Shown: positions 44,801 to 50,054 of the stretch, in pieces
How the letters are laid out: every line of letters begins with the position of its first letter
How positions within the stretch are numbered: the stretch's first letter is position 1
Source: a virus
Lineage: Duplodnaviria > Heunggongvirae > Uroviricota > Caudoviricetes
Direction: 5' to 3' (one strand)
Length of the DNA: 50,054 nucleotides
Virus record (IMG/VR): IMGVR_UViG_2563366820_000003
Coordinates: 1 to 50,054 of that record
Position numbers: made by a program

Positions 44801-47800
44801 GGTTGCGGTTGTTGGTGGCGGTGATCCGTATGATGTGGCTTATGCGATTTACAAATCTGTACCGGATATTTCGAAACTGACCAACGATGTTAGCAATCCA
44901 TCCGGTGCGACAGTGGAAAAACGCACGGTTTCAATAACCGTTTCGCCGGACGTTTATCAGGTACCGTTCGTTATCCCGTCATCACAAAACGTCATGGTGC
45001 TAATCACCTGGAACACGGTGTCTGATGATTATGTTGATCCGGCGGGTATTGCTATGGCTGTGCAGCAAAACGTTGCTGATTACATCAATTCTATTGAAGT
45101 CGGTCACCCGATAAATCTTCTGCGTATCCAGGATATTTTTACCAGTTCTGTCAAGTTGCTGGTTGATGCGACGTTGATCTCAACAATCAGTGTGAGCATT
45201 GGTATTAACGGCCATATTGTTCTTCCGGCGAAAGACACAAGCCTGGTTTATGGCGATACCTATTCCTATTTTTCAACGGTGGCATCACAGGTTCAGGTCA
45301 ACAAGTATGCAATATCTGACTGAGAAAATTCTCCCTGCTTATCCATTTGTGCAATACAGAGATGATCCGAATGTTGTTGCGTTCTTTGATGCATACAATG
45401 AAATTGCTCAGGAATACCTCGATTCACTCAACAATCTGGCATTGCCATGCTGGACATCGGAATCAATAACCGGGCAATTGCTGGACTGGATTGCTCTCGG
45501 GATTTATGGCGTTGAAAGGCCTTTACTACAAGTTTCCGAGGAGGCTATTGCACGCGGCGCATACGATACCATTGAATACAATACGATCCCGTATGCAGCA
45601 ATGCGAAATTACGTTCCGGGGCAGGCATCGTATGTTCCTGATGATTATTTTAAACGAATATTAACGTGGAATTTTTATAAGGCTGACGGCTCGCATTTCT
45701 GCATTGACTGGTTAAAGCGCCGTGTGGCGCGGTTTATTCATGGAAAAAACGGAATAGACCCGCCGTTACAACATACTTTTGATGTGAGTGTGACTGTATC
45801 GGACAGTGTTTTTTCTATTCAGATACCAGAGTATGGCGATGGTATAGGCTATTTTCTGAAAGATGCCATTGACCAGAAATATGTAAAACTCCCTTTTATT
45901 TATTCCTATGCAACAACGGTGATTCAAAAATGATTCTTGGATTTGGCAATAACGTTGTTTCAGCACTGGCTGGCGATATCACGACGATTCAGACTGATAT
46001 TCCGGTGATGCCGGGCACGGGAGCTAAATTTGCAAAATTGCTTTCTGCCGATTTTGAAAATAAATCGAACGGGCAACGCGTCTATGCAAAAATTACGCTT
46101 ACCGATAATAAAGAGTCTGCATTTGAGATTTGTCACCTGGTATCGGTAAGCGGTGATGTGCTGAAAGTCATTCGTGGGCAGGAAGGAACAACCGCGAAAG
46201 GTTGGTCCCTTAATGACGTTGTGGCTAACTTTGCCACGCGTGGATCGGAAAACTATTTCGTACAGATTGCGCAGCTTCAGAGCGGTCATTATATTGCGGG
46301 TGTTGCTGGCGGCACTGCAAATGCACTGACGCTGGAGCTTCCCGCGACGTTTTTTGTTAATGGAGGCTCGGACTGGACGCTACGAACCCCGATTATCGTT
46401 TTCCCCGTTCAGAACAATACCAACGCCGCAACGCTTCAATTGACACTGGGCGGAAAGGTTCTTGGTACGTTCCCACTTTATAAGGGGAACAAGTCCGGGC
46501 TGGTAGCGAATGATATCATTAAGGGTATTCCTTTGATTTGCCTTCTTGATAGCGAGAAAAGCTATTTCAGCGTGATAAACCCCGGCAATATCTATTCAGA
46601 TTTTGATCTGCGATATGTAAAAAAATCTGGTGATTTGATGACCGGGGAGCTGAAAATCCGTGGTGTTAATGCATTGAGGATTTTCAACGAAGCCTTTGGC
46701 CTTATTTTTCGTCGTTCGGAAGAGTGCCTGCATCTCATTCCCACTCGGGAAAATCAGGGTGAAAATGGTGATATTGGTCCTCTCCGTCCGTTCACCATTA
46801 ACCTGCGGACGGGTGAGATATCCATGTCGCACAAAGTGTCTGTTGGCGGTGGTTCTCAGGTGAATGGTGCACTGGGTATCGGTGTTCAGAACGCGCTGGG
46901 CGGAAACTCAATTGCTCTCGGGGATAACGATACAGGTATAAAACAAAACGGCGACGGCATTCTTGATGTTTATGCCAATGGACAGCATGTATTCCGTTTC
47001 CAGAATGGTGTGGCGATAGCGTTAAAAAATATTCAGGCCGGAAATGCTAAAAAATTCACGTTATCCAGCGCCAACAGTTCCACGAAGAACGCAACGTTTA
47101 ATTTATGGGGTAATTCATCCCGACCTGTAGTTGCAGAGCTTGGCGATGATTCTGGCTGGCATTTCTACAGTCAGAGAAATACTGATGGTAGTATCACATT
47201 CGCTGTAAACGGACAGATGACTCCATCAAACTATGGAAATTTTGATGCCCGTTACCAGCAGCGGAATGGCGGTGTGCAGGATGTGCGTTATGGTTCCGAA
47301 ATGTATTACAACCCTGGCAGCAATGTAATCTCCTGGACATATCACGCTCCTGCGGGACACGGATTGTCAGGGATATCGATATCGGATACTGGTAAAAATT
47401 CAGCGGATAATGTCAACGGCGTGTATTACCGCCCGCTTCAGAAACTGATTAATGGTACCTGGTATAACGTGGCGAGTGTTTAATAATGTTGCATTTAAAA
47501 AATATTACTACGGGCAATCCGAAAACCGCAGAACAATATCAGATGACAAAACAATATGATGTCACCTGGCTTTTTTCGGAAGACGGCAAAAACTGGTATG
47601 AAGAACTGACAAATTTTGCCAGTGACACAATAAAAATGGTTTACACCGGAGACGGGCGCGTGGTGTGGGTCGGTAAGGATGTGACAGGAATTGAACCCCG
47701 TAACGCCAGTGTTATTGAAGTTCCTGATATTACCGCCAACCGCCGCATTACCGCACCGGGTTACTGGTTTTACCGCAATGATGAATTTGTTTTCGACTAC

Positions 47801-50054
47801 AAATTAAAAGCAGAAGACGAACGCGATGCTCTGTTAAAGCAGGTCAGTATCGTGACCAGCGAGTGGGAAAAAGACCTGCTGCTGGGATTAATCAGCGACG
47901 CAGACAGGGAAAAAATGAAAGCCTGGCGTATATATGCGAAATCGTTGCAGGCGATGGATTTCAGTGCCGTTACTGATAAAGTCTCATATAACGCCATTGA
48001 ATGGCCCGTCTCTCCGGGAACCCTTTCCTGATTTAATTTATCGCGAGAAAAACTATGTCTGTAGTGATATCAGGTGCGCTGATTGATGGCGCAGGCATCC
48101 CCATGTCCGGATGCCACATAATTCTGAAATCCCGGGTAAACACCTCAGAAGTGGTGATGCGCACAGTTGCCGACGTGGTTACAGGAAACTGTGGCGAGTA
48201 CTGTTTTAAGGCGCAGACCGGAAAATATTGCGTATATCTGAAACAGGACTGGTGCGACGAGTACTGTGTTGGTGATATCTCAGTTTATTACGACTCAAAG
48301 CCCGGCACGCTGAACGACTTTCTGGCCGCCCTTGATGAAGACGACCTGAAGCCGGATGTGGTGAAGCGTTTTGAGGAAATTGCAGATGCAGTCAACCGTC
48401 TCTCTGAACAGGTGAGTATTGACAAGGAGAAAGCAGAAGCAGCTGCTGATGCTGCAAAAAATGCAGCATCAGCAGCTCTGGACAATACAAATAAGGCGGA
48501 GGAATTTAAAGAACAATCACGGAAGAATGCCGAAATCGCTGCGGGATGCGCGCAAAGTGCCGGACAGCACGCTTCGGATGCTGCACAAACTGAAAAGCAG
48601 GTGGAAATCCTGGCGACAGATATTCGACAGAATGCAGGCGATGTTTATCAGAACGTACAGCATGTTGAGCGTCTGGCATCAGAAGTTGCGCAGAATGCCA
48701 GCCAGGTGCATCAGAATACCCTGACAGTAACGGATGCAGCGCAGTCTGTGGAGCGGAATGCACAGCTGACAACGCAGTTAAGAAACGAAGCCGGTCGCTT
48801 TGCCGACGAATCCAGGAAAAGTTCAGAGGATGCAAAAGAGTACAGTGACAGTGCCAGAAAAGCGGTCGATGAACTGAAATCTGTCGGTACTTATCCGGCA
48901 GGGATAGCTTTTGCATGGCCAGCGGATATTCCCCCGGAGGGGTTTGCAATAATGCAGGGGCAGCCATTCGATAAATCTGCGTATCCACAACTGGCAGCTG
49001 TATTTCCGTCAGGTGTAATACCTGATATGCGGGGGTGGACAATAAAAGGCAAACCAGACGGGCGCGCAGTACTGTCTCATGAAGAGGATGGTGTTAAGCG
49101 GCACGGGCATACGGCAAAGGTATTACCGACGGATTTGGGAGCCAGGGAGACAAGTTCCTTTGATTATGGCTCTAAAAGTACAGAGCATGGAGGATTGCAT
49201 AATCACATTACCAACGGAGTCTGGACAGGTTCTACAACGAGGAACGGAGGAACAAAGTGGGACACGCCAGGATATATAGCGGATATAACAACCAGCAGCG
49301 GAGGCGAGCATGTGCATGTGGTTTATATCGGCCCGCATATTCATACCGTGGCACTGGGCGAGCATGGTCATGATGTCACAGTTGATGAGACGGGTAATGC
49401 AGAAAATACAGTTAAAAATATCGCGTTTAACTTCATTGTGAGACTGGCATGACAAATTTCAAAATGAGTCCGGAATCGCGGACACTGAAAATTTATAACT
49501 TACGGGCTGATACAAAAGAGTATATAGGCGCAGGAGATGTTTATATTCCACCGTATACGGGATTACCGGCGAACTGCACGCTTATCGAACCGCCAGAGGC
49601 TGGCCCCGGCCTGGTTGCCGTTTTCAACGATGCGCAGCAACAGTGGGAAGTTGTTGAAGATCACCGTGGGAAAACGGTATATGACACAGCCACCGGGAAG
49701 ACATTGTGCATTTCCCGTCCGGGGGCTTTGCCGGATGATGTCACCACTTTACCGCCAGAGGGGGAATTCCATCAATGGGATGGTGCGAAATGGATAAAAG
49801 ACGACGAGGCCGAAAGGGCGGCGAAAATTCGTGACGCTGAACGGGAGAAGCAAAAATTACTTCAGGAGATAATGGAAAAAACACAGCTGTGGCAAACGTG
49901 GCTGTCACTTGGGATTATCAGCGAAGCTGATAAAAAATCACTCAGGGAGTGGATGTTGTATGCCCAAAAAGTTGAAGCGACGGACACATCTGAATTACCT
50001 GTGAGATTTCCCGACAAACCTCTTATTGTGGGTGAGCTATCCGGTGCGTTGTAA

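Follow-up and report, generated by a model that had tools for sequence, protein, structure and literature searches.

Does a phage that encodes two different tail fibres, each followed by its own assembly chaperone, carry both of them on one virion? This question is raised by the right end of a prophage of the Caudoviricetes, IMG/VR record IMGVR_UViG_2563366820_000003, of which we analysed a stretch of 50,054 nucleotides (nt), referred to here as the window. The original prediction, made from the sequence alone, had placed two co-oriented fibre/chaperone pairs at 45930-50054 and proposed that the phage may display both fibres at once. All four open reading frames (ORFs) were found exactly where it had put them, tightly packed on the plus strand: fibre 1 at 45930-47483 (517 amino acids, aa), its chaperone Tfa1 at 47486-48031 (181 aa), fibre 2 at 48055-49452 (465 aa) and its chaperone Tfa2 at 49449-50054 (201 aa). 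We consider it likely that they constitute two independent receptor-binding modules, produced together at the right end of the late operon of a Rac-SA53-type, contractile-tailed Escherichia coli prophage. Judging from homology, gene order and selection, the virion most likely carries a primary Mu-type baseplate fibre and an accessory Stf-type fibre.

The four ORFs are not chance reading frames. Both small proteins contain the Pfam family Caudo_TAP, the 465-aa protein contains phage_tail_N and Collar, and the 517-aa protein matches PHROG tail-fibre families with an E-value of 1e-119; an NCBIfam search of six proteins of the region returned zero matches. Homology searches also bore out that the pairs are of different types, the first being Mu S/U-like and the second lambda Stf/Tfa-like. 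Aligning the fibres, as had been suggested as a check, matched fibre 1 to Mu S and to a Peduovirus H protein and fibre 2 to lambda Stf. Direct comparison revealed no relation between the two fibres, and the common part of Tfa1 and Tfa2 is limited to ~70 C-terminal residues with 33% identity. The genes follow each other closely: an upstream 208-aa gene overlaps the start of fibre 1 with its stop codon (ATGA), 2 nt separate fibre 1 from Tfa1 and 23 nt separate Tfa1 from fibre 2, and the start of Tfa2 again overlaps the stop of fibre 2 (ATGA). We found no above-background promoter and no convincing plus-strand terminator between the four genes. One late transcript would cover both modules, and this layout suggests that they are co-expressed from it.

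Fibre 1 consists of three parts, all encoded on the plus strand. Its N-terminal anchor (aa 1-236; 45930..46637) matches PHROG 25419 (aa 1-254), shows 95% nt identity to Rac-SA53 and gave a weak match to the 18-chain fibre 8jov (E 4e-04). The anchor recurs with 59% aa identity in a Yersinia similis prophage, there with the same baseplate. It is unrelated to the Mu-like anchor of phiP27, and of the phiP27 protein L54 only residues 115-332 align with the window, residues 1-114 being without a match. The N-terminal 236 residues are specific to this baseplate type. The anchor is followed by a conserved shaft (aa 237-360; 46638..47009) that is common to phiP27, Rac-SA53, P1 Sc and T4 gp37; homology to phiP27 sets in at 46638, and homology to both Rac-SA53 and phiP27 breaks off at 47008. 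Residues 236-307 are 74% identical to Sc of the P1-like phage RCS47, and the shaft is 48-60% identical to T4-type gp37. The distal tip (aa 361-517; 47010..47483) is of the Mu S type: Mu S (5yvq_A) aligns to aa 236-516 (E 2.4e-13), both proteins have the C-terminal motif INGTWYNVAS, and the short fibre of phiTE (9cuy) matches fibre 1 with an E-value of 1.6e-15. Identities of the C-terminal part amount to 45% for SfMu, 38% for P7 Sv' and 44% for H of a Peduovirus.

Tfa1 (47486..48031, plus strand) is a Mu U-type chaperone, as judged from its matches to Caudo_TAP (PF02413, E 1.7e-23) and to Mu U (5yvq_B, E 7e-40). The matches to Mu S and Mu U thus come from the same crystal complex (5yvq). In this complex the N-domain of the chaperone reportedly binds the fibre tip, and the C-domain is said to be conserved. 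In Rac-SA53 the tip of fibre 1 and the N-terminal part of Tfa1 have been exchanged together, and only the part of Tfa1 after 47879 is kept. By analogy with Mu S-U, Tfa1 would probably fold the tip of fibre 1 from its C-terminus. The module resembles Mu S/U (P2 H/G, P1 S/U) in homology as well as in its place after baseplate J and gpI-type genes. Directly 5' of fibre 1 and in the position of P2 gpI lies the 208-aa gene (45307..45933, plus strand; PHROG 8212, E 3e-119, function unknown), which is preceded by a 408-aa baseplate J-like wedge protein (44097..45323, plus strand; Pfam Baseplate_J, E 2e-07; PHROG 6 'baseplate wedge subunit', E 2e-38). The Baseplate_J gene upstream marks fibre 1 as a baseplate fibre; following these two genes, it would be the primary one.

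Fibre 2 and Tfa2, likewise on the plus strand, form a lambda-type module. The N-terminal collar domain of fibre 2 (StfN; aa 1-108; 48055..48378) matches Pfam phage_tail_N (PF08400, E 8e-56) and, over aa 1-93, the solved StfN domain of Ur-lambda (cryo-EM entry 9e7m, E 1.4e-17), and is 94% identical to phiP27 L56. An Ala/Glu/Gln-rich shaft follows (aa 109-271; 48379..48867), which is probably a coiled coil judging from its composition and whose 5' edge coincides with a mosaic breakpoint at 48380. The distal part (aa 272-465; 48868..49452) combines a Pfam Collar domain (aa 284-330) with a needle tip of the gp37/Stf type, matches the T4 gp37 tip (2xgf, E 4.6e-58) and is 46% identical to the C-terminus of lambda Stf. 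The tip had been called histidine-rich, which holds: 12 of the 16 histidines lie within aa 340-465, and five HxH motifs are found at 350, 382, 419, 428 and 437. These motifs are putative metal-binding layers of the needle. Tfa2 (49449..50054) is a lambda Tfa-type chaperone (Caudo_TAP PF02413, E 9.6e-29; PHROG 105, E 3e-75; 47% identity to lambda Tfa), for which a structure sequence search returned no solved relative. In fibre 2, the collar domain of ~100 residues would anchor the protein to the virion, a short coiled coil would lead to a needle of the gp37/Stf type that some five metal-binding HxH layers would hold together, and Tfa2 would assemble the fibre. The module resembles Stf/Tfa of Ur-lambda in its collar, coiled-coil shaft and gp37-like HxH tip as well as in the tfa gene that directly follows. 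It differs by a Cys-rich collar and a much shorter shaft, Ur-lambda Stf being 774 aa long.

Several further observations concern fibre 2. Six cysteines at positions 20, 46, 50, 59, 67 and 71 occupy the first part of the collar (aa 1-71; 48055-48270). The variant of Rac-SA53 and phiP27 retains most of them, whereas C20 is the only one in lambda and few occur in the P2-locus variant; disulfides or metal binding by these residues may stabilise the collar. A single-sequence AlphaFold model of the collar domain was unusable (pLDDT 41.8) and was discarded. In the Ala-rich shaft, 60 nt 3' of breakpoint 48380, a perfect 16-bp inverted repeat with a 5-nt loop (48441-48477) may have arisen by chance from Ala codons or may be a recombination-prone hairpin. 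Moreover, E. coli M8 (NZ_CP019953.1, 1407063-1409059) contains a gene pair with the lengths of fibre 2 and Tfa2 that is 99% identical from aa 109 on, and has a different collar variant with 77% identity. There the pair ends a P2-like remnant (sheath, tube and a gpD-like gene, cut by IS66) beside potB, and it is also present in two other mouse E. coli strains, three in all.

The virion onto which these modules would be mounted is of the contractile type. A 445-aa protein (34581-35918) matches the tail sheath family PHROG 205 over its full length (E 4e-55), and a baseplate hub (39974-40981) precedes the Baseplate_J protein (44097-45323). Together, the sheath, hub and Baseplate_J genes predict that the tail is contractile. 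The window is a prophage cut at gene boundaries, with an integrase gene on the minus strand (1-1236) at one end and the tfa2 stop codon (50054) at the other; as both of its ends are gene ends (integrase stop and tfa2 stop), the true attR lies outside. Its early half contains the Rac-type genes intR, recE, recT and ydaU, and its late half shows ~95% nt identity to Escherichia phage Rac-SA53 and to the record of Actinobacillus phage pPE4. The final 12 kb are 100% identical to E. coli assembly GCA_000352685.1. In this source contig (locus L006), the prophage adjoins uspF, ompN and nifJ, and both the Baseplate_J gene (6043-7269) and the 208-aa gene are also called.

The arrangement of the four genes is not confined to the window. 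A fibre, a Caudo_TAP protein, a phage_tail_N fibre and a second chaperone end phiP27 (L54-L57), Rac-SA53 (tail1-4) and the prophage of E. coli W in the same order; the layout ends at attR in the former two, and in E. coli W uspF follows directly. These relatives share with the window the gene order, the position at the right prophage end and the lack of an invertase, but differ in the parts that are used. Fibre 2 comprises 465 aa in the window and 1046-1061 aa in E. coli W and Rac-SA53, its shaft, tip and Tfa2 representing a different cassette; the second chaperone is a Caudo_TAP protein here and a DUF4376 protein in E. coli W; and Rac-SA53 has a different fibre-1 tip. Thus, the two-pair architecture is already known from deposited phage genomes, a point that the original prediction had missed, and the window is a new recombinant of it. 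Dual receptor binders as such are commonplace, as in T4, Ur-lambda and phiTE. Among 5426 complete RefSeq E. coli genomes, the exact cassette combination was found in none, and it was present in 12 other public contigs. Partial matches to 44000-50054 occurred in 223 of these 5426 genomes, with a coverage of at most 72% and none extending past the fibre-2 collar; the block from baseplate J through this collar is present at ~94% identity in many of the complete genomes. Yersinia similis (NZ_CGBP01000003.1, locus L019) has the same baseplate (J 80%, 208-aa protein 83%) followed by two fibres, namely a primary fibre with a gp37/Stf-type tip and a Tfa2-like chaperone and, after a 333-aa unknown ORF, a 484-aa StfN fibre. 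Thus, the layout with two fibres is found in more than one genus, with swapped tips.

Comparison with Rac-SA53, phiP27 and E. coli W revealed breakpoints at 46638 (anchor/shaft of fibre 1), 47008 (shaft/tip), 47879 (N-/C-domain of Tfa1) and 48380 (collar/shaft of fibre 2), and homology to Rac-SA53-type relatives always ends at the last of these. As the breakpoints lie at domain borders, host range would change by cassette exchange and not by inversion. The borders fit the domain picture given above for Mu S-U. They equally fit the description of StfN as a separate domain on a flexible linker (PMC12617516). Over evolutionary time, cassettes consisting either of a tip and a chaperone N-domain or of a shaft, a tip and a chaperone would be exchanged by homologous recombination between conserved linkers. 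The region may serve to illustrate cleanly how host range varies by the exchange of cassettes and not by inversion, with borders exactly as in the Mu S-U and Ur-lambda structures. Ratios of nonsynonymous to synonymous substitution rates (dN/dS) were 0.10 for fibre 1, 0.16-0.20 for Tfa1, 0.10-0.12 for the StfN collar and 0.09 for the C-terminal part of fibre 2, as compared to 0.04 for Baseplate_J against E. coli W. All parts are under purifying selection except Tfa2, for which there are too few changes.

How would two such fibres be arranged on one particle? As their anchors are unrelated, they should occupy different sites and be present together, like gpJ and Stf on Ur-lambda. In Ur-lambda, 12 StfN domains form a collar that carries four side fibres acting together with gpJ (PMC12617516), so that Stf is a second receptor binder beside the primary one. 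Fibre 2 can be likened to it. Both fibres of the window phage would be mounted through their different anchors on different sites, and fibre 2 would add to or speed adsorption as Stf does beside gpJ. By analogy only, fibre 1 might recognise the core of lipopolysaccharide (LPS), and fibre 2 might bind either a porin or LPS.

Several points weigh against the presence of both fibres on the virion. The module lies at the extreme end of the prophage, a typical cargo position, and the defective Rac prophage of K-12 retains stfR-tfaR without a virion; gene retention is therefore no proof of use on the virion. The tail of lambda is non-contractile, with gpM in its tip, whereas the virion genes of the window encode a sheath and a baseplate, and a homologue of lambda gpM was not detected in the window (gpV was not among the queries). 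As the sheath of a contractile tail covers the tube, the lambda mode of attachment is not simply transferable. Furthermore, the selection comparisons for the fibre-2 C-terminal part and Tfa2 comprise only 9-10 substitutions. In the searchable literature, neither transcripts nor proteomics or micrographs of virions turned up, be it for this phage or for its close relatives; publications on the Rac-SA53, pPE4 and vB_EcoS-...R records and on 8JOV contained nothing bearing on virion composition, and the SfIV paper mentions only an extra tail fibre assembly gene.

If not displayed together, the two fibres could be alternatives, with inversion or programmed recombination picking one per virion as in Mu G, P1 C and e14 P. 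Indeed, aa 236-517 of fibre 1 match proteins of invertible segments (P7 Sv' and SfMu S), and recombinase genes accompany some relatives: a serine recombinase directly follows tfa in the lambdoid StfN loci L033, L036 and L051, and in degraded relatives from Shigella and E. coli the StfN fibre is followed, at a distance of 4 kb, by a pseudogene for a Gin-like invertase. In these decayed loci of Shigella flexneri (CP182556.1, L014) and E. coli (CP178302.1, L015), fibre 1 is interrupted, probably by an insertion element, and followed by Tfa1, a 304-aa StfN fibre, a DUF4376 protein, an ipaH-type NEL E3 ligase effector on the opposite strand and the invertase, which is 78% identical to Gin and has an internal stop. 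The original prediction had seen no invertase in the window and had concluded that this is not a Mu/P1-style invertible segment, and both statements withstood our searches. A tblastn search of the window with a Mu Gin sequence gave a best E-value of 1.1, and the same query did detect Gin-like genes in other loci. Since the window ends at the tfa2 stop, this proved little, and the source contig was therefore examined: the 975 bases between tfa2 and uspF hold neither an invertase nor another credible ORF, no listed frame exceeding 55 aa. The crossover core AAACCNNGGTTT was not found in 45930-50054 with up to one mismatch, and apart from the one local hairpin the inverted repeats of the fibre region are short, imperfect and at chance level. 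Each tip and chaperone part is present once and on the plus strand, with no second or inverted copy. These results ruled out both an invertible segment beyond the window edge, given the 975 non-coding bases before uspF and the Gin and gix-core negatives, and spare cassettes, duplicated or inverted, within the window. Thus, the G/C segment, Gin/Cin and alternative S'/U' of Mu and P1 have no counterpart here, and phiP27, Rac-SA53 and E. coli W also end with their second chaperone. Moreover, both fibres have complete and different N-termini instead of one shared constant part. A switch between alternative fibres is already largely refuted, and we give it next to no chance. As an invertase occurs in some relatives and none occurs here, an inversion system is an optional neighbour of this cassette.

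A weightier objection is that fibre 2 and Tfa2 are passengers, that is, a lambdoid side-fibre cassette kept as a relic or recombination reservoir and not assembled on the virion. The collar domain is overwhelmingly a siphovirus feature: in no more than four of the 302 phage records that contain it (Rac-SA53, pPE4 and two phiP27 records) is it over 60% identical to the fibre-2 collar, and the rest of those listed are lambdoid, Stx-converting or siphovirus-labelled (vB_...S), as judged by their labels. The lambda tail-tip proteins, gpM included, have no homologue in the window, the cassette adjoins attR, and the same shaft, tip and Tfa2 also end the decayed P2-like element of E. coli M8. Yet the collar itself is under purifying selection (dN/dS ~0.1), and fibre 2 is translationally packed into the late operon. 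The position of the collar is also constant: it directly follows Tfa1 in phiP27, Shigella and E. coli, and in Yersinia it lies 3' of the first fibre pair. Its Cys-rich variant (94% identity between phiP27 and the window) is specific to these contractile-tailed phages and distinct from the lambda and P2-locus variants. We thus regard a mere passenger as unlikely. Even less probable, in our view, is a branched appendage in which the fibre-2 collar docks on the fibre-1 shaft (aa 237-360) or on virion-bound Tfa1, as in G7C, CBA120 and DT57C. Such docking would accord with the fact that the window phage and phiP27 share only the fibre-1 shaft and tip, Tfa1 and StfN, with the retention of the block of Tfa1 C-terminus and StfN (47879-48380) even where the fibre-1 tip is swapped (Rac-SA53), and with Shigella and E. 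coli ECMA0423 loci (L014-L018) that keep Tfa1 directly before StfN. But conserved linkers, serving as recombination sites, would in any case be expected between variable cassettes, and solved homologues of the collar bind ring proteins of the tail or neck and not fibres. In addition, Yersinia similis combines a 73%-identical StfN and the same baseplate with a primary fibre that has an Stf-type tip and a Tfa2-like chaperone and no Mu S/U part.

If a Mu-type baseplate fibre and an Stf-type accessory fibre are indeed both displayed, it has to be asked where the lambda-type collar docks. The twelve StfN domains of lambda are wrapped around the site where the gpV ring meets the gpM ring (PMC12617516). 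Further lambda tail-tip proteins used as queries (H, L, I, J and neighbouring ORFs) had no homologue in the window. The fibre-2 module would work like Stf, but its attachment site must differ; the contractile tail makes this site uncertain, which the original prediction had also missed. Comparing the phiP27 proteome with the window showed that only the fibre-1 shaft and tip, Tfa1 and StfN are in common, and no other head, neck, tail or baseplate protein of phiP27 matches the window. We looked for a docking partner common to all StfN fibres and had to reject the candidates, as phiP27 shares only the fibre module and Yersinia similis has the baseplate but no Mu S/U part. Thus, neither the baseplate nor fibre 1/Tfa1 is a universal StfN partner.

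A different precedent is provided by the Vibrio myophage XM1, a contractile-tailed phage whose collar spike gp40 sits on the neck proteins gp4 and gp5 (PMC10457771). Residues 1-178 of fibre 2 gave a match to gp40 (7kjk_A3) with an E-value of 4e-05, low alignment accuracy and a contribution from coiled-coil low complexity. By this weak match, fibre 2 can be likened to gp40, in which a long trimeric coiled coil links an N-terminal immunoglobulin-like domain to a distal domain for binding; the distal part is a tailspike in gp40 and a gp37-type needle in fibre 2. For an XM1-like neck, PDB sequence searches with three candidate neck proteins (32773-34581) and the sheath returned no usable solved-structure match. 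Tentatively, we suggest that StfN might be a portable, nearly partner-independent ring adaptor by which accessory fibre cassettes plug onto sequence-unrelated tails, including contractile ones; on phages of the Rac-SA53 type and on phiP27 it would then sit at the neck, like XM1 gp40, or at another exposed hexameric ring, and not at the tail tip. Such an adaptor would explain a 94% identical collar on virions with otherwise unrelated structural proteins as well as the placement of the cassette as cargo at the prophage end. If true, it would also explain the free spread of Stf/Tfa cassettes among E. coli prophages, and engineered phages or tailocins could be given further receptor specificities by means of the lambda-type collar as a ready-made, transferable adaptor. 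The attachment of the collar to a contractile tail is the sole element that might repay experimental work.

Additional observations concern the surroundings of the fibre genes. In the source contig, tfa2 and uspF are separated by 975 bases (L006, 12001-12975), of which the first 436 are unique to this recombinant and the last 539 match what follows the final fibre gene of E. coli W and Rac-SA53, toward attR/uspF. Inside the baseplate operon, just before baseplate J, the segment 42515-43505 encodes two proteins, one of 190 aa and unknown function (PHROG 35514) and one of 138 aa that belongs to the YafO toxin family (Pfam, E 2e-16), whereas an antisense antirepressor and a hypothetical gene occupy the same spot in E. 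coli W and Rac-SA53; it therefore looks like a cargo hot-spot within the tail genes. Finally, most of the late region of this Rac-type E. coli prophage recurs at ~95% identity in the record PP818812.1 (Actinobacillus phage vB_Apl-pPE4). The host given for that record, Actinobacillus pleuropneumoniae, looks doubtful.

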